DNA of 34,661 nt from a virus. Its lineage: Duplodnaviria > Heunggongvirae > Uroviricota > Caudoviricetes. How positions within the stretch are numbered: position 1 is the first letter of the stretch; each line of letters starts with the position of its first letter. The notes under the pieces are model-generated. The model was given only the letters and a program-made list of their open reading frames with translations. It was not told the origin of the DNA and ran no database searches. The position numbers were made by a program, and so were the translations under genes. Positions 6,382-25,276 of the stretch are shown piece by piece. The stretch lies in IMG/VR virus record IMGVR_UViG_2531839482_000004; one strand, written 5' to 3'.

Positions 6382-6743
6382 CTTATTATCCTGCATTGTT
6401 AAAAACGGCAGAATCCTATGTGACAACAATTAAACGATAGTTAAATGGATTGATGAAAATTAAAACTATATAGGTGTACGCTCAGACTATTGGAGGAAGT
6501 TGGGGACACTCAGAATCCTGTGGAATGAAATAAACCGGTCTATCCGTCTATTACCCTTTTAGCTGCGCTGTATCGTCGCCGTATTCCCGCATTAACCATG
6601 ACCGTAGCCCGACGGGGAATTCCTTCTGCGTGAGTGTGCGGGAATAATCAAAAACGATGCACACCGGGTTTTACTGTGCTGACAGACGCAGGGTTACCCT
6701 CATAGTCGCTTTTCCGGTGCGATGGTGGAAGAAACCGGGATGT

Positions 6744-6938: not shown

Positions 6939-7106
6939 GAGGTTGCCCCGTATTCAGTGTCGCTGATTTGTATTGTCTGAAGTTGTTTTTACGTTAAGTT
7001 GATGCAGATCAATTAATACGATACCTGCGTCATAATTGATTATTTGACGTGGTTTGATGGCGTAGATGCACGTTGTGACATGTAGATGATAATTATTATC
7101 ATTTTT

Positions 7107-7326
7107 CGGGTCCTTTCCGGCGATCCGACAGGTTACGGGGCGGCGACCTCGCGGGTTTTCGCTATTTATGAAAAATTTCCGGTTTAAGGCGTTTCCGTTC
7201 TTCTTCGTCATAACTTAATGTTTTTATTTAAAATACCCTCTGAAAAGAAAGGAAACGACAGGTGCTGAAAGCGAGCTTTTTGGCCTCTGTCGTTTCCTTT
7301 CTCTGTTTTTGTCCGTGGAATGAACA
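7107..7326 (+). other. helper prophage cos site (cosQ, cosN, cosB)
   Basis: gggtcctttccggcgatccgacaggttacg / GGGCGGCGACCT / cgcgggttttcgctatttatgaaaa... matches the lambda genome termini; cosN 12-nt cohesive end GGGCGGCGACCT at 7138-7149, followed by cosB R-elements (gtttccgttc, aaaggaaacgacagg, tgtcgtttcctttctc) up to the Nu1 start. Confidence 0.92.
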
Positions 7327-7846
7327 ATGGAAGTCAACAAAAAGCAGCTGGCTGACATTTTCGGTGCGAGTATCCGTACCATTCAGAACTGGCAGGAACA
7401 GGGAATGCCCGTTCTGCGAGGCGGTGGCAAGGGTAATGAGGTACTTTATGACTCTGCCGCCGTCATAAAATGGTATGCCGAAAGGGATGCTGAAATTGAG
7501 AACGAAAAGCTGCGCCGGGAGGTTGAAGAACTGCGGCAGGCCAGCGAGGCAGATCTCCAGCCAGGAACTATTGAGTACGAACGCCATCGACTTACGTGTG
7601 CGCAGGCCGACGCACAGGAACTGAAGAATGCCAGAGACTCCGCTGAAGTGGTGGAAACCGCATTCTGTACTTTCGTGTTGTCGCGGATCGCAGGTGAAAT
7701 TGCCAGTATTCTCGACGGGCTCCCCCTGTCGGTGCAGCGGCGTTTTCCGGAACTGGAAAACCGACATGTTGATTTCCTGAAACGGGATATTATCAAAGCC
7801 ATGAACAAAGCAGCCGCGCTGGATGAACTGATACCGGGGTTGCTGA

Positions 7847-7872
<26 letters not shown>
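7327..7872 (+). CDS. nu1: terminase small subunit Nu1
   Basis: 181-aa translation matches recalled lambda gpNu1 except for one or two substitutions. Confidence 0.95.
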
Positions 7873-11553
<3,681 letters not shown>

Positions 11554-12882: not shown

Positions 12883-13215
12883 ATGACGAGCAAAGAAACC
12901 TTTACCCATTACCAGCCGCTGGGCAACAGTGACCCGGCTCATACCGCAACCGCGCCCGGCGGGTTGAGTGCGAAAGCGCCTGCAATGACCCCGCTGATGC
13001 TGGACCCCTCCACCCGTAAGCTGGTTGCGTGGGATGGCACCACCGACGGTGCTGCCGTTGGCATTCTTGCAGTTGCTGCTGACCAGACCAGCACCACACT
13101 GACGTTCTACAAGTCCGGCACGTTCCGTTATGAGGATGTGCTCTGGCCGGAGGCTGCCAGCGACGAGACGAAAAAACGGACCGCGTTTGCCGGAACGGCA
13201 ATCAGCATCGTTTAA
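12883..13215 (+). CDS. D: head decoration protein gpD
   Basis: [41 protein letters not shown]..., 110 aa, lambda gpD. Confidence 0.95.
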
Positions 13216-13235
13216 CCTGACCCTTCATCACTAAA

Positions 13236-13257
13236 GGCCGCCTGTGCGGCTTTTTTT
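13236..13257 (+). terminator. stem-loop plus T-tract between D and E
   Basis: gccgcctgtgcggc followed by ttttttt; weak terminator or attenuator-like structure. Confidence 0.35.
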
Positions 13258-13270
13258 ACGGGATTTTTTT

Positions 13271-13546
13271 ATGTCGATGTACACAACCGCCCAGCTGCTG
13301 GCGGCAAATGAGCAGAAATTTAAGTTTGATCCGCTGTTTCTGCGTCTCTTTTTCCGTGAGAGCTATCCCTTCACCACGGAGAAAGTCTATCTCTCACAAA
13401 TTCCTGGACTGGTAAACATGGCGCTGTACGTTTCGCCAATTGTTTCCGGTGAGGTTATCCGTTCCCGTGGCGGCTCCACCTCTGAATTTACGCCGGGTTA
13501 TGTCAAGCCGAAGCACTTAGCATGGCTTTCTGAGGCTTTCGTGTAG
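13271..13546 (+). pseudogene. E: major capsid protein gpE, N-terminal fragment (codons 1-82) interrupted by island insertion
   Basis: MSMYTTAQLLAANEQKFKFDPLFLRLFFRESYPF...TPGYVKPKH matches lambda gpE 1-82, then reads into island DNA (LAWLSEAFV*) and stops at 13546. Confidence 0.92.
13506..13515 (+). repeat. attL core AGCCGAAGCA (left island junction inside E)
   Basis: Identical 10-mer occurs at 24486-24495 at the other junction; sequence outside the pair is contiguous lambda E. Confidence 0.75.
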
Positions 13547-13678
13547 TTGCTGGTTTTTACACTTAATCTTTTGATAATAAAGAATAAGTTTATCTGGCGC
13601 TTTCACTGAATTTTCCTCGTTATCTGTGTGTTGCAATCATCTCTGTATTGCAGCTTGTATTGCTTTTTGGGGCTAAAA

Positions 13679-14914
13679 ATGGCTGGCGAGAACAAACTGA
13701 GCGACAAAGCGCTTAAAGGATATCTGGGGAAACCCAGAGAAAAGCAGATCACCATTGCTGATGGAAAGGGGCTTTCTATTCGTGTGAGTACTAAAGGGGC
13801 TGTGAGCTTTGTTTTCTTCTACAGGTTAGCAGGTGGCCGGGCTGCTCCGGTCTGGCTAACGTTGGGTAAATATCCTGATATGTCACTCAAACAGGCAAGG
13901 GAAAAGCGCGACGAGTGCCGTGGTTGGTTGGCTGACAAACGTGATCCGCGTATCCAGATTAAGATTCAGGCTGAAGAACGCTTAAAGCCGGTCACAGTGG
14001 AGGATGCACTAAATTACTGGTATGAAAATTACTGTAAGGTGCGTCGTAAAACTCATGCTGTAACGCTTGGCAGATTTCGAAAGCATATCTTTCCCTATAT
14101 CGGTCATTTGCCCGTAAATGACACTCACCTATATGAATGGCTGGACTGTTTTGACCGAATTAAACGTAATGCACCAGTTATGGCGGCGTATGTTTTTTCT
14201 GACACTAAATTAGCTCTTCGTTTTTGTCGGGTACGCCAGTACGCGACGTGTGATGCTTTAAAGGATTTGCGCATGAGTGATGTGGGGCAGATTGCAGGTA
14301 AGCGGGATCGGGTTCTGGATGAAGCCGAACTGGGCCAGCTCTGGAAGGCAATTTTTGTCGAGCCTGATTTAAAACTAATGTCTGAATACACGCGAAAAAT
14401 GTTTGTGCTTTGTACAGTATTTGGATGTCGAATGAGTGAAGCCCGATTATCTGAATGGAGTGAATGGGATCTCGAAAGTTGGGTTTGGACTGTACCAAAA
14501 GATCACTCAAAAACTGGTGTTGAAATCGTCAGACCAGTACCTGAAATTCTACGACAGTGGGTAACGGATGTTCACGAAGAGACAAAACATACTGGTTATG
14601 TGCTGGGAAGTCTGCGAATTAGAGAAAGCGTAAGCAAGATTGGGGGGAAAATCGGTAAACGTTTGGGCCATGAAAAACAATGGTCACTACACGACCTTAG
14701 AAGAACGCTATCTACTCATCTAAGTGATCTCGGTGTTGAATTTTATGTAGTAGAACAACTGTTAGGCCATGCGCTACCTGGCGTGGCAGGGGTTTACAAC
14801 AGGAGTACGTTTATGGCTAAAAAACTGGATGCTCTGGAACTCTGGACTACATATCTCAATAGCATCGCAGCTGCTGATTCAAAAGTGACAATCCTCAAAC
14901 AAAAGGCTGGTTAA
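13679..14914 (+). CDS. int: tyrosine integrase, P4-type with N-terminal arm-binding domain
   Basis: N-terminus LSDKALKGYLGKPREKQITIADGKGLSIRVS...LGKYPDMSLKQAREKRDE (DUF4102-like); C-terminal catalytic region with HDLRRT and LGH...GVY motifs; first gene inside the left junction. Confidence 0.88.
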   Translation: MAGENKLSDKALKGYLGKPREKQITIADGKGLSIRVSTKGAVSFVFFYRLAGGRAAPVWLTLGKYPDMSLKQAREKRDECRGWLADKRDPRIQIKIQAEERLKPVTVEDALNYWYENYCKVRRKTHAVTLGRFRKHIFPYIGHLPVNDTHLYEWLDCFDRIKRNAPVMAAYVFSDTKLALRFCRVRQYATCDALKDLRMSDVGQIAGKRDRVLDEAELGQLWKAIFVEPDLKLMSEYTRKMFVLCTVFGCRMSEARLSEWSEWDLESWVWTVPKDHSKTGVEIVRPVPEILRQWVTDVHEETKHTGYVLGSLRIRESVSKIGGKIGKRLGHEKQWSLHDLRRTLSTHLSDLGVEFYVVEQLLGHALPGVAGVYNRSTFMAKKLDALELWTTYLNSIAAADSKVTILKQKAG

Positions 14915-14915
14915 C

Positions 14916-15143
14916 ATGAAAAAAATGGCAATTGTTGATAAAAAGGGTCTGGAGTACATTCCTAACATTGACCGAATGATCCGTGAGAAAGAATGTCGGG
15001 AGCTAACCACTCTTGCGAACAGCACACGCTGGAAGCTGGAGAAGGAAGGAAAATTTCCTAAGCGGATCAAGATTGGCGCTACTGCGGTAGCTTATCGTCT
15101 CTCCGAAGTTCAGGCATGGATTAAGGGAGAATGGAGTAATTAA
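14916..15143 (+). CDS. alpA: AlpA-family HTH regulator / excisionase-like protein
   Basis: 75 aa; ATG overlaps int stop; ...IKIGATAVAYRLSEVQAWIKGE resembles the AlpA HTH pattern; position immediately after int as in E. coli PICIs and P4-like elements. Confidence 0.75.
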   Translation: MKKMAIVDKKGLEYIPNIDRMIREKECRELTTLANSTRWKLEKEGKFPKRIKIGATAVAYRLSEVQAWIKGEWSN

Positions 15144-15161
15144 ATAATAAGGTATTTCGAT

Positions 15162-15983
15162 ATGACAATGTGTGTTATTTGGAAGTCAGTTGATGGAACT
15201 ATTTATGCCGCCACAGATTCTCGACTGAGCTTTGAAGAAAAAAAGTTAGATCGTTGCGTTAAAATATCCCGAATCACATGTCTTTTACATGAGCCTAGTG
15301 ATGCAGTAGATACAAGTAAGATACTTGTTGATAAGCGTGAGATTGCTACATTATTCTGTGGAGGCTTTACAAATGCCTATATCATCAAGGAGAGCCTTAC
15401 TGAGATTTTAAATAAAATAGTTCTCATGAGGGAATACTCCGGCGTGCCCTTTTCGGAAATTATAGATATAGCGTTTTCCATTTATGAAGATACATCAAGA
15501 GATATGTTTGCATCATTAATGGACCAACGATTTGGATGTGTTTTTTACATGATAAGTTACTGCCCTGTATATAAGGAAATGCAAGCATTTAAATTTGAAT
15601 TCAAAATAAATGAAAACGGTATTAACTATTATAAATCTAAACTTTTTGAAGATCGTAACTATGAGGTTAATGGAAGTGGGGTGAGGTACTTGGAACAAAA
15701 TCATCGTATTGAAGATCTAGTTAAAGAAGCTTATCAGAAGAATAAATACACACCACTTCTAGATATACTTGAGTCCGTAATTAATGATGACGACTGTGAC
15801 TCTGTTGGAGGTGCAATGCAATACATTTCATGTAATAAAGATAGACTAAAATTGTGTTGTCATATGTTATTTGAAGAAAATAATCATAAGTATATGAAAG
15901 CTGGGGTGGACTTAAATGAACTCAATGAGAAGTTTATACCTTCTGGTTTGTTTTTTGAGACAGATGCAATCATCAAAAGATAA
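15162..15983 (+). CDS. hypothetical protein, AT-rich cargo gene (possible Ntn-hydrolase-like fold)
   Basis: 273-aa ORF with markedly lower GC than flanks; N-terminus MTMCVIWKSVDGTIYAATDSRL loosely resembles the proteasome/HslV-type N-terminal nucleophile region, with Cys where HslV has Thr. Similarity is weak and unverified. Confidence 0.5.
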   Translation: MTMCVIWKSVDGTIYAATDSRLSFEEKKLDRCVKISRITCLLHEPSDAVDTSKILVDKREIATLFCGGFTNAYIIKESLTEILNKIVLMREYSGVPFSEIIDIAFSIYEDTSRDMFASLMDQRFGCVFYMISYCPVYKEMQAFKFEFKINENGINYYKSKLFEDRNYEVNGSGVRYLEQNHRIEDLVKEAYQKNKYTPLLDILESVINDDDCDSVGGAMQYISCNKDRLKLCCHMLFEENNHKYMKAGVDLNELNEKFIPSGLFFETDAIIKR

Positions 15984-16292
15984 ACGATAACCGACTTTGA
16001 TTGTGATAATTTTATCAAGATTATGATGAATGCTGCAGTATATCTAACATGCTGCAGTTAACTCAATTTGTATTATCGCTAATATTTTTAATAACAAGGA
16101 TGTTTATTGCTTTTTTATTTGAGAGTGAACGTCTAACCATTGTTGTTCTTAGTTCTCATGGAGAGATTGGAGCTTAAAATACGCAATGTTTTGAAATCAG
16201 CGCAACTATATTCCGTAATTGTTCTTTGTCGTTCTTGCGTGGCACGGTGATACACCTCTCATGTCGGTTGTTTTTTTGAACGCAGAAACATA

Positions 16293-16320
16293 AAACAAAG
16301 GCGACCGGGATGGTCGCCAG
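16293..16320 (-). terminator. rho-independent terminator of the leftward island operon
   Basis: ggcgaccgggatggtcgcc hairpin; on the minus strand it is followed by tttgtttt, downstream of the 16387 stop. Confidence 0.5.
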
Positions 16321-16386
16321 TGGCATAACACTAAAATTGAGCGTATTCAGAATACCAAGTGTCGGCTGGTGGACAATGGAATCAGT

Positions 16387-16743
16387 TCAATATTTAGGTG
16401 GTTCAACAAGAGCGTTTATCATTGCTCTCAAATTATCGCGAACACTTATCCAAGTCTGTTCTGCTCGTTCTAACTCATTAGTGTACAGCTTTAATGTTTT
16501 ATCTATGCCATATGTGGCTATTAAATTTATAGCTTCTTGTAACTTTTCGGGATTATTCCTTCTTGGGGGAGTGAATATACCGCGGATTTTTCCGGTAATT
16601 AAAGCTTTACGGTGTCTACATAGAATACCTTTACTTCCTGCTGGACAATTACAAGTCATGATTAGCGAGCCAGAATCGTTTGATACAGTGACTATGTATA
16701 CATCCAAACTACTGCTACTTGTTGCGAAGAATTCGTATTTCAT
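16387..16743 (-). CDS. SWIM-type zinc-finger protein, hypothetical
   Basis: 118-aa ORF with CxC-x7-CxH motif (TCNCPAGSKGILCRH); AAGGAG 8 nt upstream of ATG 16743; preferred over the overlapping plus-strand ORF 16310-16750. Confidence 0.6.
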   Translation of the reverse strand: MKYEFFATSSSSLDVYIVTVSNDSGSLIMTCNCPAGSKGILCRHRKALITGKIRGIFTPPRRNNPEKLQEAINLIATYGIDKTLKLYTNELERAEQTWISVRDNLRAMINALVEPPKY

Positions 16744-16770
16744 GTGTTAGCTCCTTGACTTCAATTATTC

Positions 16771-16965
16771 TTATCCTTTTGGTTCAATACCGCGCCGTAG
16801 CAGCTCTTTGCGCCCTAACTCTTTAAGCCAGTTGGCAAGGCTTACCCCATCGTTACTGGCTTCGTTATCAAACTGCTCCTTCAATTCAGGAACTATGCGC
16901 ATATGGAACGGTGGGGCCTTTCCTGTGCCTTTTTGTTTTTTATCGCGCTTAATAACCGTTGACAT
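16771..16965 (-). CDS. small ribbon-helix-helix-like DNA-binding protein (candidate island regulator)
   Basis: 64 aa; ...FHMRIVPELKEQFDNEASNDGVSLANWLKELGRKEL has a beta-strand/helix/helix pattern like Arc/MetJ-type proteins; start codon abuts a palindromic operator-like site. Confidence 0.55.
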   Translation of the reverse strand: MSTVIKRDKKQKGTGKAPPFHMRIVPELKEQFDNEASNDGVSLANWLKELGRKELLRRGIEPKG

Positions 16966-17026
16966 GTGTACACCTATAGCGTTATGTTTTTATTCGATAG
17001 GTGTACACCTTAACATGTGTGCATTT
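16959..17026. promoter_or_regulatory. divergent control region with inverted repeats (operator candidate)
   Basis: GTGTACACCTAT (16966-16977) and its exact reverse complement ATAGGTGTACAC (16997-17008), 19-bp spacer; related ACATGTGT boxes at 16962 and 17014; TTGACA at 16959-16964. Confidence 0.5.
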
Positions 17027-17300
17027 AAAAACGCAACGCCCCGCAGTGCGGGAACACATGCAGGGCGTCTAACCACCAACGATAGCAACAGTATCGAGGT
17101 AGCTATGAGAAATCATCCCACACACCCGCAAGGGCGGGACTCGCACAACCTGAATAAATTCACTTGGCGCTTTATCGCCCTGAGTGCGGCTAAACCGCGC
17201 ATGCTTACCATCGTGGTCACCAGCGAGCAGGAAGACCGCCAGCAATCCCCAACTGGCTGCGTGATGATATTCGCCGCCCGTATTCGTCAGGAGGTGTGCC

Positions 17301-17525
17301 ATGAATGATCTTTATTTTAAAGTGCTGACACATGCTGAAAACGCGCTCGTTTGTGGCAAAAATATGCGAGAAATCTTATCAACCTGGCTTGATGGGACAA
17401 CAAATGCGGAACACGATGAACGGGATGCTAATTTAGCTGGAGCGTTAATTACGTTACTTGATCCTGTCATCAAAGAGCTGGATGAAGCTATAAAAATACA
17501 CGACCAGAGCTATACCGGAGAATAA
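17301..17525 (+). CDS. hypothetical protein
   Basis: 74-aa ORF, AGGAGG 8 nt upstream of ATG; first gene of the rightward operon leading to the primase. Confidence 0.6.
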   Translation: MNDLYFKVLTHAENALVCGKNMREILSTWLDGTTNAEHDERDANLAGALITLLDPVIKELDEAIKIHDQSYTGE

Positions 17526-17528
17526 AAA

Positions 17529-17816
17529 ATGAAAAATAAATTTTCTGGCTTTATTGCCAGCGGTCAAACTCATTCAAAAATCAGCCTTGGGGATATTTTC
17601 AAAGACAGCTATGGCTATCGGGTAAAGATTATTTCGGTTGATGATCGTCGTGTCTCTTATTTGCGTGATGGTTATGATTTTGAATGTGTTATGCCGCGTC
17701 AGCAGTTCGAAAGAGATTTCATTCTGGTAAAAAATTGCAAGACAGATAATCAGAGGCGTGCCGCAGGCTATATCCGTAAAATTCGGGCAATGTTAGTTGC
17801 CGGAGGTAACAAATGA
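17529..17816 (+). CDS. hypothetical protein
   Basis: 95-aa ORF, GGAGA upstream; tightly coupled to the primase gene (ATGA overlap). Confidence 0.6.
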   Translation: MKNKFSGFIASGQTHSKISLGDIFKDSYGYRVKIISVDDRRVSYLRDGYDFECVMPRQQFERDFILVKNCKTDNQRRAAGYIRKIRAMLVAGGNK

Positions 17817-19633
17817 AACGTGCTCCGAACTTAAAATACCAACCGCGCGACAAAATGACGGAAGTCATCATTTTTGCTGGCAGTGATGCCTGGAGCCATG
17901 CAAAAGAATGGAATGAATGGGCAGGTAAGCATATTGCAGCAGATGATACACCACCAGTCATTCTGGGTACGGAACAACTGGAAAACCTGGATGATATGCA
18001 AATTATCGATGAAGGCCGTCATTATGTGCGTGTTTATCGTGCCGGAAAGATTGCAGAGAAAAGTCTGACGAAGGTTGCGACATTACTTGCTATTGCAGGC
18101 GTAAAGGAAGCACGTTGTTACCGTAGCTTTGTTGATCGAGAGCCTGAAGACTGGACTCCGCGCCTTGTCGGCCTAAAAGCTGAAGCGGAGCATGGGGAAA
18201 GTCTGGTGATTGAACTGCCAGTGAAGAAGGCAGAGCGCAAAAATGACGAGCGTGCTTCATCTTTGGCGTTGAATCAGATGGGGGCCAGCCAGCGCGGTGA
18301 AGTTCTCCTTGCACATTACGGCGGTGAACTGGCAATCAATGCCGACTCTGACACCGTTCATCATTACAACGGCGTTGTATGGGAGCCGGTTCAGGATAAA
18401 GAGTTACAGCGTGCTATGGCGCAGATTTTCATTGATGCGGAGATCAGCTATTCGCAGAACGCTATTAAATCGGCGGTAGATACCATGAAGTTAAGTTTGC
18501 CTGTAATGGGGAATACAGCCCGTAACCTGATTGGATTCAGTAACGGGGTATTTGATACCAGAACTGGTAATTTTCGGGAGCATAACAAAAACGACTGGTT
18601 GTTAATTGCCAGTGAATTACCTTTCAGCCCACCAGCAGAGGGGGAAACGCTGGCAACACATGCGCCGAATTTCTGGAAGTGGTTGCGCCGTTCGGTGGCT
18701 GAGAATGACCGCAAGGCAGATCGCGTACTGGCGGCATTATTCATGGTGCTGGCGAACCGGTACGACTGGCAGTTATTCATTGAGGTAACAGGGCCGGGGG
18801 GAAGTGGTAAAAGTGTGATGGCGGAGATTTGCACCATGCTGGCGGGTAAGGCTAATACAGTATCAGCAAGCATGAAGGCGCTGGAAGATGCAAGGGAACG
18901 TGCGTTAGTGGTTGGCTTTTCGCTGATTATCATGCCGGATATGACCCGCTACGCTGGTGATGGGGCAGGGATTAAGGCCATTACAGGCGGTGACAAGGTG
19001 GCAATTGACCCGAAACACAAAGCCCCCTATTCAACGCGTATTCCGGCAGTAGTGCTGGCGGTTAACAATAACGCCATGTCATTCAGTGACCGCAGCGGGG
19101 GGATCTCACGTCGTCGGGTGATATTCAATTTTTCGGAAGTTGTACCGGAGAACGAACGCGATTCGATGCTGGCGGAAAAAATAGAAGGTGAGCTGGCGGT
19201 AGTGATTCGTCATCTGCTTACAAGGTTTGCTGATCAGGACGAAGCCAGACGCCTGTTATATGAGCAGCAGAAATCTGAAGAAGCACTGGCGATAAAGCGA
19301 GAGGGGGATTCGCTGGTGGACTTCTGCGGTTATCTCATGGCATCGGTAATGTGTGATGGCCTGTTAGTGGGTAATGCTGAAATTGTGCCATTCAGCCCAC
19401 GCAGGTATCTCTATCATGCCTATCTGGCTTATATGAGGGCACATGGGTTTGGTAAACCTGTAACACTGACGCGCTTCGGTAAAGATATGCCGGGGGCAAT
19501 GGCGGAATATGGCAGGGGGTATATGAAACGGAAAACGAAGCACGGTTTGCGTTCAAACGTGACACTGACGGAGGAATCAGAAGACTGGATGCCATCATGT
19601 GTATCGGTCACTAATGACGATAGCAAAAATTAA
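17813..19633 (+). CDS. primase/helicase-type replication protein (P4/PICI pri-rep family, D5-like NTPase)
   Basis: 606 aa; Walker A GPGGSGKS; overall architecture like P4-family primase C-terminal/helicase proteins; GGAGG RBS. Confidence 0.8.
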   Translation: MKRAPNLKYQPRDKMTEVIIFAGSDAWSHAKEWNEWAGKHIAADDTPPVILGTEQLENLDDMQIIDEGRHYVRVYRAGKIAEKSLTKVATLLAIAGVKEARCYRSFVDREPEDWTPRLVGLKAEAEHGESLVIELPVKKAERKNDERASSLALNQMGASQRGEVLLAHYGGELAINADSDTVHHYNGVVWEPVQDKELQRAMAQIFIDAEISYSQNAIKSAVDTMKLSLPVMGNTARNLIGFSNGVFDTRTGNFREHNKNDWLLIASELPFSPPAEGETLATHAPNFWKWLRRSVAENDRKADRVLAALFMVLANRYDWQLFIEVTGPGGSGKSVMAEICTMLAGKANTVSASMKALEDARERALVVGFSLIIMPDMTRYAGDGAGIKAITGGDKVAIDPKHKAPYSTRIPAVVLAVNNNAMSFSDRSGGISRRRVIFNFSEVVPENERDSMLAEKIEGELAVVIRHLLTRFADQDEARRLLYEQQKSEEALAIKREGDSLVDFCGYLMASVMCDGLLVGNAEIVPFSPRRYLYHAYLAYMRAHGFGKPVTLTRFGKDMPGAMAEYGRGYMKRKTKHGLRSNVTLTEESEDWMPSCVSVTNDDSKN

Positions 19634-19644
19634 ACTTATGGAAT

Positions 19645-19800
19645 AACTGTTCACCAAACTATTCACCGTTCACCTTTTTGATTATTTATTGAGCTTCAAG
19701 GGTGAACAGTGGTGAACAGTTGGTGAATAGTTTTTGTGAAACTGTTCACCCATTAACATTATGAATTAAAAGAGAAAATATCAAAAGGTGAACAGGTGAA
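19645..19800. repeat. iteron cluster, candidate island origin of replication
   Basis: About nine copies of GGTGAACAG / CTGTTCACC (and GGTGAAT variants) in both orientations around an AT-rich core (19756-19786), immediately downstream of the primase gene. Confidence 0.75.
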
Positions 19801-19846
19801 GGGTTAAAACGCAAAAATTTTAATTTACTGCTGTGAGATAAAGCCT

Positions 19847-20092
19847 ATGACAGCGAAGCACACAAAAAAATCACAATCGCACGCCCTTGATTTGACGGAA
19901 CACTGGTTAAGGGTGTCGATAAAAATCATCGACCGCAACGCCGGGGAAGGATACGCGAAAGCACATCCCGAACTGATTAGCGCATTCATGACAACGGCGG
20001 CTGCAAACTTTGCCACTCTGACCGAACGGGAGATTGCTGAAGCGGAGGAAGTGACAACAATCAATATTAAGTCCGGAGAGCAGGCAGCATGA
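19847..20092 (+). CDS. hypothetical protein
   Basis: 81-aa ORF between the origin and the ssb-like gene; no family recognised. Confidence 0.5.
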   Translation: MTAKHTKKSQSHALDLTEHWLRVSIKIIDRNAGEGYAKAHPELISAFMTTAAANFATLTEREIAEAEEVTTINIKSGEQAA

Positions 20093-20538
20093 CGGCGCAA
20101 ATATCAGTTTACGGGCGGTTGGTGGACGACCCGCAGACAAAACAGACCAGCAAGGGCACCCCCATGACGCTGGCGCGTATGGCGGTATCACTGCCCTGCA
20201 GTCAGTCGGATGACGGTCAGGCGACGATGTGGTTATCTGTCCTGGCGTTTGGCAGACAAGCCGACGCGCTGGCAAAGCATCACAAAGGCGAACTCCTGAG
20301 CGTGGCGGGTAATATGCAGGTGAGCCAGTGGACTGGACAGAACGGTGAAACGCGGCAGGGCTGGCAGGTTATCGCAGACAGCGTAATCAGTGCGCGAACG
20401 GTGCGACCGGGCGGCAAAAAAGGTCAACAGGGTCAGGCTACTGACGCACTGAACAGAGCAAAACAACAGGTAGATCAGCAAGGAAGCCATCCACCAGTGG
20501 GAGATAATGAGCAATGGGGAGATGATATTCCGTTTTAA
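20089..20538 (+). CDS. ssb: single-stranded DNA-binding protein (SSB-like)
   Basis: 149 aa; OB-fold-like N-terminus, Gly/Gln-rich linker, C-terminal acidic tail ...WGDDIPF as in SSB proteins. Confidence 0.75.
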   Translation: MTAQISVYGRLVDDPQTKQTSKGTPMTLARMAVSLPCSQSDDGQATMWLSVLAFGRQADALAKHHKGELLSVAGNMQVSQWTGQNGETRQGWQVIADSVISARTVRPGGKKGQQGQATDALNRAKQQVDQQGSHPPVGDNEQWGDDIPF

Positions 20539-20755
20539 ATATTGCCAATAAAAAAGGCCGGAAAAAAATAAATTTTCCGGCATGCTACATAAATCCCGAC
20601 CAAAGGGAGTGAAGATATTAACACTAATTATCCGCGCTGAAGTTGTTATCCCAAAACTTTATACAACATTGCACTCGGTTGCATGTATTCGCATGACAAA
20701 TATCGGTGATAGCATATATCCACAATTATTTTTAATGAATGCAAAGAGGATGCGT

Positions 20756-21796
20756 ATGGTTGATTTATATTCGCCTACCCAGCTTGTACAGGTGGTTAAT
20801 GCTGTAGATGTACAAAAACAACTAAATGCGTTGTTTACCAGTTTGTTTTTTACTCGCTCGGTAATGTTTGAATCGCGCGATATTATTCTTGATACAATCG
20901 ACGATCCAAATATCCCAATTGCAGCGTTTTGTTCTCCTATGGTGGGTAGTAAAGTTTCACGTGACGAAGGGTACGAATCAAAAACAATTCGTCCAGGCTA
21001 TATGAAGCCGAAAAGCAGCATTGATCCAAATAAGTTAGCTGTGCGCCCTGCTGGTGTATCACCTGAGCAATACAATGCTTTTGGAGCGCGTAATATTAAA
21101 GTTAAACAGGCGATTGTAAATCAGGCTAAATCTATTCGTGCACGTATTGAATGGCTTGCCGTTCAGGCAATCACAACGGGGAAAAATATCATTGAGGGCG
21201 ATGGTATTGAACGTTATGAGCTGGACTGGAATATTAAACCACAAAATATCATCACTCAGTCTGGCGGTGCTGAGTGGTCAGGTAAGGATAAAGAAACTTT
21301 TGATCCAAATGATGATATTGAGAGCTACGCAGAATTTAGTGAGGGCGTCACTAATATCATCATTATGGGCGGTAATGTATGGAAGAAATACCGTTCATTC
21401 AGAGCGATAAAAGAGGCTCTGGATACCCGTCGTGGTTCTAATTCCGAACTGGAAACGGCCCTTAAAGACCTTGGTGATTCGGTGAGTTTTAAAGGGTATA
21501 TGGGCGATGTTGCGATTGTTGTATACAGCGGGCGTTATACCGACGAGGACGGAACTGAAAAACATTTCCTTGATCCTGATTTGATGGTGCTTGGCAATAC
21601 GGCTCTTCAGGGGATTGTCGCCTATGGCGGTATTCAGGATCCGGAGCTAATCCGAATGGGGCTGACTAAAGCCGAACTTGCACCGAAAAACTATATTGTG
21701 CCTGGTGATCCGGCTATTGAATATGTGCAGACACATTCAGCACCACAGCCAATACCGGCCCGCATCAATCGTTTTGTTACCGTTCGCATTGGCTAA
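20756..21796 (+). CDS. island-encoded major capsid protein, divergent paralog of lambda gpE
   Basis: 346 aa; shares RPGYMKPK, NIITQSGGAEWSGKDKETFDPNDDIESYA, ALDTRRGSNSELETALKDLG, AIVVYSG, MVLGNT with helper gpE but is diverged throughout; AGAGGA RBS 6 nt before ATG 20756. Confidence 0.88.
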   Translation: MVDLYSPTQLVQVVNAVDVQKQLNALFTSLFFTRSVMFESRDIILDTIDDPNIPIAAFCSPMVGSKVSRDEGYESKTIRPGYMKPKSSIDPNKLAVRPAGVSPEQYNAFGARNIKVKQAIVNQAKSIRARIEWLAVQAITTGKNIIEGDGIERYELDWNIKPQNIITQSGGAEWSGKDKETFDPNDDIESYAEFSEGVTNIIIMGGNVWKKYRSFRAIKEALDTRRGSNSELETALKDLGDSVSFKGYMGDVAIVVYSGRYTDEDGTEKHFLDPDLMVLGNTALQGIVAYGGIQDPELIRMGLTKAELAPKNYIVPGDPAIEYVQTHSAPQPIPARINRFVTVRIG

Positions 21797-21805
21797 GGGG
21801 GAGCA

Positions 21806-22147
21806 ATGGCTACTCATTACACTGAACTCATGGCTGGCACTGAAGCACTGGTGACTACGCTGGGGATATTTTCAGCTAATAAAGGGGTAATTCCTGCATT
21901 TACGCCACTGATGCAGGAAGATGCAACAGGTGCACTGGTGGTATGGGATGGTTCGAGCGTAGGTAAAGCGGTTTATGTTTCCGCTGTACAAATCGACACC
22001 GCGAAAAAAACACAGGCTCAGGTCTATAAGACAGGTGTCTTAAATGTTGATGCTCTGAACTGGCCTGAGTCTGTAAAAGAACTGTCAGTAAAGATTGCAG
22101 CGTTTGTTGGCTCAGGTATTTCTGTTCAGCCGCTGGCTCGTGTGTAA
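21806..22147 (+). CDS. island-encoded decoration protein, divergent paralog of lambda gpD
   Basis: 113 aa; shares TPLM, LVVWDG, YKTGV, WPE, AAFVGSGISV with gpD; lies downstream of the capsid gene (order E-like then D-like, opposite to lambda). Confidence 0.75.
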   Translation: MATHYTELMAGTEALVTTLGIFSANKGVIPAFTPLMQEDATGALVVWDGSSVGKAVYVSAVQIDTAKKTQAQVYKTGVLNVDALNWPESVKELSVKIAAFVGSGISVQPLARV

Positions 22148-22158
22148 AGGGGGATACA

Positions 22159-22542
22159 ATGCAGAATGATTACAATGACCTTAAGCCAATTGCCGAAATG
22201 ATGTACCCGAATCCAGCTGTAGAGGAATTAAAAGCTATCGCTGACAAAATGTGTTTAAGCGAGCGCCTTGTTGATATGAATCAGGTGATGGAAATTACAA
22301 CCCTGAGTCGGCGTACACTGCTAAACCTTGAGGCTAGTGGAGAGTTCCCGGAGCGTGTGCAGGTTACGGAAGGGCGTAAGGCCTGGTATTTAAGTGAAGT
22401 GATCGACTGGATAAATAATATTCCTCGCGCTTCTGAATATTGCCGCGTACCTGTCCCAAAAAAGCCAGATGCGGCGCTATGCCTCAAGATTGAGCGTGTA
22501 CGCCGCAATGCACGGGATGGTCGCTATAAGCTGATTGGTTGA
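22159..22542 (+). CDS. AlpA/MerR-like HTH protein with N- and C-terminal extensions
   Basis: 127 aa; core MEITTLSRRTLLNLEASGEFPERVQVTEGRKAWYLSEVIDWI fits the AlpA-type HTH pattern. Confidence 0.6.
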   Translation: MQNDYNDLKPIAEMMYPNPAVEELKAIADKMCLSERLVDMNQVMEITTLSRRTLLNLEASGEFPERVQVTEGRKAWYLSEVIDWINNIPRASEYCRVPVPKKPDAALCLKIERVRRNARDGRYKLIG

Positions 22543-22565
22543 TGAAATTAGGGCCCGCTCTGGCT

Positions 22566-22787
22566 GGCGGGTCCTTTCCGGCGATCTGACAGGCTACGGG
22601 GCGTCAGGCGCGCAGTTTTTCGCTATTTGTGAAAATTTTCCTGTTTAAGGCGTTTCCGTTCTTCTTCGCCGTAACTTAATGTTTTTATTAAAAACACCCC
22701 CTAAAAAGAAAGGAAACGACAGGTGCTAAAAACAGGCTTTTTGGCCTCTGTCGTTTCCTTTCTCTGGTTTTGTCCGTGGAATGAACA
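22566..22787 (+). other. island cos site (cosQ and cosB conserved, cosN divergent)
   Basis: Aligns base-for-base with helper cos 7107-7326, but the cosN position reads GGGCGTCAGGCG (helper GGGCGGCGACCT), with further changes just downstream. Confidence 0.8.
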
Positions 22788-22853
22788 ATGGAAGCCAACA
22801 AAAAGCAGCTGGCTGACATTTTCGGTGCGAGTATCCGTACCATTCAGAACTAG
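22788..22853 (+). pseudogene. Nu1-paralog N-terminal segment ending in an in-frame amber codon (codon 22)
   Basis: MEANKKQLADIFGASIRTIQN then TAG where helper Nu1 has TGG (Trp). Confidence 0.7.
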
Positions 22854-22865
22854 CAGGAGCAGGGA

Positions 22866-23339
22866 ATGCCCGTTCTGCGAGGCGGTGGCAAGGGTAATGA
22901 GGTGCTTTATGACTCTGCCGCCGTCATAAAATGGTATGCCGAAAGGGATGCTGAAATTGAGAACGAAAAGCTGCGCCGGGAGGTTGAAGAACTGCGGCAG
23001 GCCAGCGAGGCAGATCTCCTGCCAGGGACTATTGAGTATGAACGCCATCGACTTACGCGTGCGCAGGCCGACGCACAGGAACTGAAGAATGCCAGCGAAA
23101 CAGGTGAGGTAATTGACACTGCATTTGCGACTTATGCTTTGTCGAAATTAACTGGGGAAGTTGGAGCAATCATTGATAGTCTTCCACTTGCGATCTGTCG
23201 ACAGTTTCCTGGCATGGAAAAACGGTATCAGGACTTCATTAAGATGGAGGTCAGTAAAGCATTTATTCGAGCTTACCAGATCTCAGATAACATTCCAGAT
23301 ATGGCTGAAAGGTATATCAAGGATAATCAGCGAAGTTAA
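22866..23339 (+). CDS. N-terminally truncated terminase small-subunit paralog (Nu1 residues 27-end; divergent C-terminal domain)
   Basis: Starts at the codon equivalent to Nu1 Met27, where a GAA->GAG change creates a GGAG Shine-Dalgarno 6 nt upstream; first ~80 aa near-identical to Nu1, last ~75 aa replaced by AT-rich divergent sequence. Confidence 0.7.
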   Translation: MPVLRGGGKGNEVLYDSAAVIKWYAERDAEIENEKLRREVEELRQASEADLLPGTIEYERHRLTRAQADAQELKNASETGEVIDTAFATYALSKLTGEVGAIIDSLPLAICRQFPGMEKRYQDFIKMEVSKAFIRAYQISDNIPDMAERYIKDNQRS

Positions 23340-23445
23340 AACAAATGAAACCATAGGTAGGAAGAGTGCTTAGGTGGTTCTTTGTTGCTTAAAAGTCGCC
23401 AGTAAAACTGGCGATAGATTTTATTTGTCAAAAGCATTTGACCTT

Positions 23446-24351
23446 TTAAGGTAGTGGTACTATGGATATTTTTCTGTCGTTCCCAAATGAACTTTTAAAT
23501 AATTTCGCTCTTGGATACATCTTAACTAGTGATGCGACTTCATCGAACTCGCTGGCATCAAAAAGAGGACCAAGTATTACAGATTTTAACTCAAAAGGGT
23601 GAAATTTTAAGTCGCTATATTGACCAGTGCTATTTGGCCTAGCGTAGGTTGAAATTCTCCACTCTCTTTCATATGCCCATTCTTCTGTTTTTATGAATAT
23701 TATCTCATTATTGATATATTCAATTGACTTATTGTCTGGCATGAAAAGCAACTCGGCCATCCCTTCAGCAGTGTGAGTTAGAGGCATTTCATCTGTGTAT
23801 TTCATAGGTTTGGCTATTAACCAAGCGCTATCCAGAAAGTCTACACAATCAAATTCGATAACTATACCTTTATATTTATCGGCATAGTGATTCCACATAG
23901 GAGTGATTATAGGGCTCTCAGATAAACACAAAATCCTTCTGTTATTAAGCATTCCTCGCCAGACATCTTTCATTTCTTGTATTGCCGCAGGAGCGCCAAT
24001 CCCAACTGGTGGAATGTTTACCATTTCTTGAAATCTTTCAATTAATCCTGCGGGTATGCCTAAAGGAAATGACTTTTGGAAATCACTTAGCATTGTTCTA
24101 ATTCTAGGGTTTAAATTTTGTATGTCTTCTCTGGGGGTAATCAACTCCGCTATTAACTTGCGGGCTAAAGCTTTGCCAATATTAATTTCGTTAATACCAG
24201 GCATAACTTCTCTTGGAACATCAAAAGGGTCATTAAATAGGACCGGAGAACTCCATCTAAGGCTGCATGAATCAAGAACAATTTTCGCGGTATTCAACGA
24301 CATATACTTATAAAATGTTGAGCGTTCATGCATTCTGTTGGGTGAGCGCAT
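23446..24351 (-). CDS. hypothetical protein, DUF2971-like, AT-rich cargo gene
   Basis: 301 aa; N-terminal FYKYMSL...LRWSSPVLFNDPFD and WAYEREWRI motifs as recalled for DUF2971 proteins; low GC; GAGGA RBS; last gene before the right junction. Confidence 0.55.
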   Translation of the reverse strand: MRSPNRMHERSTFYKYMSLNTAKIVLDSCSLRWSSPVLFNDPFDVPREVMPGINEINIGKALARKLIAELITPREDIQNLNPRIRTMLSDFQKSFPLGIPAGLIERFQEMVNIPPVGIGAPAAIQEMKDVWRGMLNNRRILCLSESPIITPMWNHYADKYKGIVIEFDCVDFLDSAWLIAKPMKYTDEMPLTHTAEGMAELLFMPDNKSIEYINNEIIFIKTEEWAYEREWRISTYARPNSTGQYSDLKFHPFELKSVILGPLFDASEFDEVASLVKMYPRAKLFKSSFGNDRKISIVPLP

Positions 24352-24485
24352 AGATTCCTCTTGTTAAATGAGTGATGGTTTTCATCCATGTATTGCACGT
24401 TGTATTGCATTCAAGGATTTTCCATTTCAATTCTATAGCTAAAACGTAATCAAATCATTCACATCCTTTCATATTTGACTCATGT

Positions 24486-24495
24486 AGCCGAAGCA
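24486..24495 (+). repeat. attR core AGCCGAAGCA (right island junction)
   Basis: Identical to 13506-13515; E coding sequence resumes in frame immediately afterwards. Confidence 0.75.
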
Positions 24496-25276
24496 TGAGG
24501 TGAATCCGCAGATGACCCTGCGTCGCCTGCCGGATGAAGATCCGCAGAATCTGGCGGACCCGGCTTACCGCCGCCGTCGCATCATCCTGCAGAACATGCG
24601 TGACGAAGAGCTGGCCATTGCTCAGGTCGAAGAGATGCAGGCAGTTTCTGCCGTGCTCAAGGGCAAATACACCATGACCGGTGAAGCCTTCGATCCGGTT
24701 GAGGTGGATATGGGCCGCAGTGCGGCGAACAACATCACGCAGTCCGGCGGCACGGAGTGGAGCAAGCGTGACAAGTCCACGTATGACCCGACCGACGATA
24801 TCGAAGCCTACGCGCTGAACGCCAGCGGCGTGGTGAATATCATCGTGTTTGATCCGAAAGGCTGGGCGCTGTTCCGTTCCTTCAAAGCCGTCAAGGAGAA
24901 GCTGGATACCCGTCGCGGCTCTAATTCCGAGCTGGAGACAGCGGTAAAAGACCTGGGCGAAGCGGTGTCCTATAAGGGGATGTATGGCGATACGGCGATC
25001 GTCGTGTATTCCGGACAGTACGTGGAAAACGACGTCAAAAAGAACTTCCTGCCGGACAACACGATGGTGCTGGGGAACACTCAGGCACGCGGTCTGCGCA
25101 CCTATGGCTGCATTCAGGATGCGGACGCACAGCGCGAAGGTATTAACGCCTCTGCCCGCTACCCGAAAAACTGGGTGACCACCGGCGATCCGGCGCGTGA
25201 GTTCACCATGATTCAGTCAGCACCGCTGATGCTGCTGGCTGATCCTGATGCGTTCGTGTCCGTACAACTGGCGTAA
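24486..25276 (+). pseudogene. E: major capsid protein gpE, C-terminal fragment (codons ~80-341)
   Basis: ...KHEVNPQMTLRRLPDEDPQNLADPAYRRRRIILQNMRDEE... to ...FVSVQLA matches lambda gpE; preceded in frame by a TAG from island DNA. Confidence 0.92.

Follow-up and report, generated by a model that had tools for sequence, protein, structure and literature searches.

The window analysed here, a 34,661 bp stretch of Caudoviricetes DNA (IMG/VR record IMGVR_UViG_2531839482_000004), carries a lambda-type major capsid gene, E, that is cut in two by a long insertion. The question raised by this locus is whether the capsid gene has been destroyed, or whether it is held apart by an element that can leave again and restore it. 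The original prediction favoured the second answer, proposing that recombination between two short repeats at the junctions would return an intact E reading frame and that the island behaves as a reversible interruption of the helper capsid gene. By its predicted gene content, the element that surrounds the island is a prophage of the lambda type. Of its late genes, those from Nu1 through I have lambda-like open reading frame lengths and no visible decay, and J is cut by the window end. The window does not extend to the early region of this prophage.

The split capsid gene and its junctions

The E frame starts at 13271 (MSMYTTAQLL...), passes through the left copy of the repeat, continues for nine foreign codons and reaches a stop at 13544-13546, ending ...KPKHLAWLSEAFV. 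Residues 5-82 of this left fragment match positions 1-78 of the Pfam Phage_cap_E profile. The 3′ fragment on the far side of the island is without its own start in the E frame context. When nucleotides 13271-13515 and 24496-25276 are joined, they form 341 codons plus a stop, in frame, reading ...PGYVKPKHEVNPQMTL.... The restored protein aligns without gaps to the lambda major capsid protein of PDB 7vi9 (residues 1-341 to 1-341, E = 1e-224) and matches Phage_cap_E across the whole profile. It is also identical at 334 of 341 residues to what we take to be the lambda gpE sequence.

The 10 bp repeat AGCCGAAGCA is present in exactly two copies in the window, both on the + strand (Table 1). By chance 0.13 copies are expected under a dinucleotide-preserving shuffle, and two or more copies were found in 1 of 100 shuffles. 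This statistic is modest, and weak when taken alone; it is the placement of the copies that decides. The letters at the left and right junctions are exactly those quoted in the original prediction, and its central claim holds: recombination anywhere in the 10 bp block rebuilds a lambda-type E, as judged by the 341 in-frame codons, the alignment to 7vi9 and natural empty sites that are 100.0% identical (see below). Excision would be expected to leave scarless junctions, with attB reading ...GTCAAGCCGAAGCATGAGGTG... and attP reading ...CATGTAGCCGAAGCACTTAGC....

Between the repeats, the island measures 10,980 bp and has a GC content of 34-51%, versus approximately 58% in the flanking late genes. 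Its right end supplies no E 5′ sequence, which means that its attP brings no replacement sequence and that the target late gene is disrupted. Because the island holds no replacement for the interrupted E sequence, the prophage would be without its own capsid protein for as long as the island is integrated.

Table 1. Features of the island, its junctions and the embedding prophage (positions in the window)
Feature	Position	Strand	Remarks
Embedding prophage cos and Nu1	7107-7872	+	cosN GGGCGGCGACCT at 7138-7149; Nu1 at 7327-7872
E 5′ fragment	13271-13546	+	codons 1-82 authentic, then 9 island codons and stop (translation)
attL copy of 10 bp identity block AGCCGAAGCA	13506-13515	+	spans E codons K79-P80-K81-H82
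P′ arm, doubled TGTATTGC (tcTGTATTGCagctTGTATTGCt)	13642-13664	+	starts 131.5 bp downstream of core centre
Tyrosine integrase, 411 aa	13679-14914	+	Pfam Arm-DNA-bind_3 4e-19, Phage_integrase 1e-16
AlpA-family excisionase/regulator	14916-15143	+	Pfam Phage_AlpA 6e-15
Variable (dynamic) zone	15162-17300	both	contents differ from 11capE
273-aa protein, function unassigned	15162-15983	+	end-to-end match to phrog_16034 (unknown function)
SWIM zinc-finger protein	16387-16743	-	variable zone
Arc/HicB-like small repressor candidate	16771-16965	-	variable zone
Replication zone	17301-20538	+	Pfam D5_N, Pox_D5, DUF5906, SSB
Small ORF	17301-17525	+	replication zone
DUF4222	17529-17816	+	replication zone
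D5-type primase-helicase	17813-19633	+	Pfam D5_N, Pox_D5, DUF5906
Iterons	19645-19732		tandem repeats
Small ORF	19847-20092	+	replication zone
SSB	20089-20538	+	Pfam SSB
Island gpE-family major capsid protein, 346 aa	20756-21796	+	Pfam Phage_cap_E 3e-41
Island gpD-family head decoration protein, 113 aa	21806-22147	+	Pfam HDPD 4e-15
Second AlpA-family HTH protein, 127 aa	22159-22542	+	Phage_AlpA 8e-9, phrog_2790 1e-49, PDB 8c3t AlpA
Island cos region	22567-22787	+	cosQ and cosB helper-like; cosN 12-mer GGGCGTCAGGCG at 22599-22610
Island Nu1-like small-terminase gene	22788-23339	+	codon 22 amber; C-terminal third unlike that of any phage Nu1
DUF2971 cargo gene	23446-24351	-	Pfam DUF2971 1e-9; PADLOC PDC-S31 2.5e-32
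P arm, doubled TGTATTGC (caTGTATTGCacgtTGTATTGCa)	24387-24409	+	ends 81.5 bp upstream of core centre
attR copy of 10 bp identity block AGCCGAAGCA	24486-24495	+	exact repeat
E 3′ fragment	24496-25276	+	last base of codon 82, codons 83-341, stop

A published counterpart, and empty and occupied sites

The arrangement in the window is already known, as helper-embedded PICIs (HE-PICIs) with precise excision were described by Tommasini, Mageeney and Williams (NAR Genom Bioinform 2023; PMC10111431). Their Eco567.11capE is an 11 kb island that interrupts the lambda-E-like capsid gene in a prophage integrated at icd of E. coli NRG857c. It is bounded by a 10 bp identity block and has its own capsid gene (PMC10111431). 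When cells were treated with mitomycin C and attB and attP were followed by qPCR and deep sequencing, the composite of prophage and satellite excised precisely and replicated, and the satellite then excised precisely at 2-3 h, by which time 42-98% of composites had lost it (PMC10111431). The induction experiment put forward in the original prediction is thus already published for a near-identical element. The same authors catalogued 201 further elements at the E:Phage_cap_E:80 site and 290 elements at 13 other late-gene sites, found that many HE-PICI helpers look truncated, and did not detect virions of either partner (PMC10111431). They read the interruption as ‘regulated gene integrity’, which is the same reading as the ‘reversible interruption of the helper capsid gene’ proposed for the window.

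Several features place the island beside these elements. Its core spans codons 79-82 of E, near position 80 of the Phage_cap_E profile, and the island separates the two E fragments in the gene order Nu1-A-W-B-C-D-E′...′E-FI-FII-Z-U-V-G-T-H-M-L-K-I. The island itself has the PICI organization of int-AlpA, a variable zone, a primase/SSB replication zone and a late zone. All of its recognizable core genes, including int, alpA and the primase gene, are on the + strand, the same as the late operon. Judged from predicted genes and their order, its layout is that of a Gram-negative cos-type PICI. The attP sites of HE-PICIs are diagnosed by doubled copies of TGTATTGC, one lying 81 ± 2 bp upstream of the centre and the other 132 ± 2 bp downstream (PMC10111431); in the window TGTATTGC occurs 9 times versus 1.29 expected, and doubled copies are present on both sides of the core (Table 1).

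Over all 411 residues, the integrase has 99.3% identity to its NRG857c 11capE counterpart (approximately 408 of 411, with the length counted from the start used in the RefSeq annotation of relatives), which assigns it on sequence to the 11capE clade. Identities to 11capE are 97% for AlpA, 99.7% for the primase, 99.7% for the island capsid protein and 100% for the island gpD-like protein. Both islands target the same codon of a lambda E-type capsid gene, and both have a 10 bp identity block, the same orientation and the doubled TGTATTGC arm motifs. They differ in the core, where the window has the synonymous variant AGCCGAAGCA and 11capE has AACCCAAGCA, and in the variable zone, where positions 15123-17150 of the window are unrelated and give no BLAST match to NRG857c. 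The cargo at the right end also differs, being DUF2971 in the window and HEPN plus DUF262 in 11capE. Furthermore, the window keeps a full-length Nu1-like gene, albeit with an amber codon, of which 11capE has only a 64-aa remnant; 11capE was described as lacking terS (PMC10111431).

Identity blocks at the E:80 site are listed in the supplement of PMC10111431 as agccgaagca (85 entries), aacccaagca (72), agcccaagca (8), aagca (18), ccaagca (2) and aaccgaagca (1). The block in the window, agccgaagca, is therefore the commonest catalogued variant, with 85 entries versus 72 for aacccaagca. The shorter blocks, aagca and ccaagca, hint at a crossover in the right-hand part of the block, although later homologous recombination between E alleles could yield the same short-block pattern.

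The predicted empty site also exists in nature. An in silico attB of 1000 bp, made by joining 13016-13515 to 24496-24995, was compared by BLAST with 5426 complete E. coli genomes. In at least 25 of these genomes it matched annotated intact ‘major capsid protein’ genes in one piece and at 100.0% identity, and 131 records were at least 99% identical. An uninterrupted version of the E site was found in 3155 of the 5426 genomes, and lambda-like phages match across the joint at 98%. With the island removed, the window is collinear with an island-free prophage of strain Res13-Lact-EB12-05 over an 11,875 bp block that spans the junction (98.56% identity, 2 gaps). The occupied attL junction was found in 173 of the 5426 genomes, and the attR junction with the right-end cargo of the window in 32 complete genomes.

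The junction expected of an excised island was sought by exact-pattern scans that allowed the known core variants. Among IMG/VR viral contigs there were no matches to the attP junction. A scan of metagenomes returned one contig, L003 (ORSG01002381, human gut, 8651 bp), which carries in order the 3′ end of a primase gene, SSB, capsid, decoration and AlpA-like genes, cargo, the attP junction, int and alpA. The junction (6599-6630) reads ...TTGACTCATGT AACCCAAGCA CTTAGCATGG..., has the AACCCAAGCA variant of the core rather than that of the window, and comes from a contig with coverage of approximately 2.9x. By its gene order this contig represents a sibling island in circular, concatemeric or tandem form. 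It lends support to natural recombination at the E:80 core, although a single contig could instead reflect tandem insertion.

Taken with the restored frame, these comparisons make it very probable that 13516-24495 is an HE-PICI of the E:Phage_cap_E:80 group, a near-identical sibling of Eco567.11capE, that splits E reversibly. Precise excision has been seen experimentally in Eco567.11capE, and for the copy in the window we infer it from the analyses above.

Probable reversible interruption and its alternatives

The reversible interruption put forward in the original prediction is supported at the level of sequence by the restoration of the frame, by an intact integrase with AlpA adjoining it, and by arm motifs at the published distances. 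The island has all of the parts needed for an integrase-mediated interruption of this kind: the intact tyrosine integrase, the adjoining AlpA and the paired arm motifs. In the mechanism that we propose, integration of the island would have split E and left a copy of AGCCGAAGCA in direct repeat at each end, as attL and attR. On induction, the composite of prophage and island would leave the chromosome and then replicate. Integrase and AlpA would later excise the island precisely within the 10 bp block to give an intact 341-codon E. The timing of this excision could plausibly come from Q-antiterminated late transcription that enters int and alpA. Q-modified polymerase passes terminators, and therefore the island would not block the late genes downstream of it. 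For the same reason, a promoter and terminator consensus scan at the left junction is uninformative; its counts did not differ from those of shuffles, and it gave no + strand terminator between E′ and int. Switching on of int and alpA by read-through from the prophage late promoter is a hypothesis in PMC10111431. Once circular, the island may replicate using its own primase and iterons, and would presumably be packaged via its cos site by the helper terminase.

Other histories could have left a capsid gene in two pieces. The island might be a true HE-PICI by descent of which this copy no longer excises or transfers, leaving E permanently inactive and the prophage a capsid-less remnant. We consider this improbable. 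It would fit with the internal stop in the Nu1-like gene of the island, with a prophage whose early region is outside the window, and with the finding that helpers often look truncated and that virions were not obtained (PMC10111431). However, the integrase and AlpA are full length and closely match (99.3% and 97%) their counterparts in 11capE, for which excision has been demonstrated. The two core copies do not differ from each other, neither arm motif is damaged, and the late genes Nu1 through I retain lambda-like lengths. Moreover, the amber codon is common to otherwise intact open reading frames in relatives, which is unlike general decay.

It is more doubtful still, and in our judgement very improbable, that the island stays in place and that, during prophage morphogenesis, the E-like and D-like proteins it encodes take over from the split E, such that excision would be unneeded for particles. 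The island does encode full-length proteins of the gpE and gpD families, from genes that run in the direction of the late operon, and a ‘backup intact copy’ was suggested in PMC10111431. Yet its capsid protein shares only 41% identity with the restored helper E, and its decoration protein 38% with helper D. The composite, at approximately 11 kb over the prophage length, would also exceed the roughly 10% of extra insert tolerated by lambda packaging, and the sibling 11capE excises upon induction (PMC10111431). We give almost no credence to an unrelated insertion that is flanked by the same 10-mer by chance or through target-site duplication by a transposon, even with two copies of the 10-mer arising in one of the 100 shuffles. 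The copies are placed exactly as restoration of the frame requires, the cured sequence is 100.0% identical to natural alleles, and the same junction recurs in 173 genomes. No transposase family match was found among the island open reading frames, which instead include a tyrosine integrase at the left end, with its arm motifs. This last explanation is refuted by the natural empty sites, the recurrence in 173 genomes and the integrase identity with 11capE.

Reversible splitting of E by an HE-PICI has relatives outside the satellites. Regulated gene integrity, or active lysogeny, is known for the skin element in sigK and SPbeta in spsM of Bacillus subtilis, and for phi10403S in comK of Listeria. 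As in these cases, an integrase-bearing element in the window splits a gene that precise, timed excision would rebuild, and its attP is without replacement sequence. Unlike these cases, the gene that is split belongs to another mobile element, being a late gene of a prophage, and not to the host. In HE-PICIs, regulation by gene interruption is thought to serve the satellite (PMC10111431). Embedding in the helper capsid gene would guarantee co-residence and couple excision to the helper late phase, and the embedded satellite would hold back helper capsid production until its departure. As one more instance of a catalogued type, the window adds little. It does add an independent measure of prevalence, in that occupied attL junctions (173) can be set against uninterrupted sites (3155) in the same 5426 complete E. 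coli genomes. As a minor lead, it also draws attention to a terS/cosN variant, so far undescribed, that occurs in one sub-lineage.

The packaging module and other island genes

The junction itself is known, and the least-explained part of the island is its packaging module. In BLAST comparisons, positions 22567-23095 of the island are 95.3% identical to the cos-Nu1 region of a near-identical helper prophage, and the cos/Nu1 segment aligns directly with the helper cos region of the window itself (7080-7880). The cosB region of the island is approximately 95% identical to that of the helper. In contrast, the cosN of the island, GGGCGTCAGGCG, differs from that of the embedding prophage, GGGCGGCGACCT, at 6 of 12 positions. 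This cosN variant is conserved in four islands, including NRG857c 11capE, the H1 island and that of metagenome contig L003.

The Nu1-like gene is chimeric. Its first approximately 100 codons, for the DNA-binding and assembly part, are lambda-type, with approximately 95% DNA identity to helper-type Nu1, and the best match to its last approximately 83 residues among 50,697 phage records is only 41% identical. The gene was found in 31 of the 5426 complete genomes. Codon 22 is TAG in the window and TGG (W22) in intact relatives; the same W22 amber is present in 3 of 7 sampled relatives, with the remainder of the open reading frame intact. A search for Phage_Nu1 in the accessible portions of the text and supplements of PMC10111431 gave no match.

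In size (approximately 11 kb) and in the order int-alpA-primase-capsid homologue-cos, the island resembles EcCICFT073 and other Gram-negative cos-type PICIs, which parasitize lambdoid phages (Fillol-Salom et al. 2018; 2019, PMC6739421). EcCICFT073 occupies a site in the chromosome and its action is purely in trans, whereas the island in the window sits inside the E gene of a prophage. EcCICFT073 has phage-like cosN and cosQ with a different cosB that is read by an Rpp-TerS complex (PMC6739421). This pattern is reversed in the window, where cosB is helper-like and cosN differs. No Rpp homologue was recognized when the 127-aa HTH protein was compared with solved structures, among which only AlpA (8c3t) matched. 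Packaging redirection of the Rpp type, as in EcCICFT073, was rejected on the approximately 95% identity of cosB to that of the helper and on the match of the 127-aa protein to AlpA.

The embedding prophage is presumed to be the packaging helper of the island, as it likewise was in PMC10111431. Packaging by this prophage is not assured, because cosN differs at 6 of 12 positions and the Nu1-like gene has an amber codon. The packaging module may be a redirection or helper-interference device undescribed for HE-PICIs, or the prophage may serve as landing pad and induction sensor and not as packaging helper; we regard this proposal as tentative and on balance unlikely.

Elsewhere in the island, the 273-aa open reading frame at the start of the variable zone has a very low GC content, approximately 34%, and gave no match in Pfam or PADLOC. 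The iterons are short repeats of AACTATTCACC and of its complement, GGTGAACAGTT; they follow the primase gene and precede the next open reading frame, and from this arrangement they are likely to be the replication origin of the island. Relatives differ at the iterons by a short indel (roughly 50-75 bp). Immunity RNAs of the C4/isrK type are mentioned in PMC10111431; an Rfam scan of 13000-25000 for such RNAs gave none at the gathering score. Among solved structures, the best match to the capsid protein encoded by the island is 3bqw (7e-121), which carries the annotation ‘Putative capsid protein of prophage’. At the attB-homologous position (20996-21010), the capsid gene of the island reads AAGCCGAAAAGCAGC and keeps 7 contiguous bases of the 10 bp core. 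Finally, the DUF2971 cargo gene is a candidate defence gene. Since HEPN and DUF262 genes occupy the same slot in NRG857c, the right end of the island looks like a position for swappable defence cargo.
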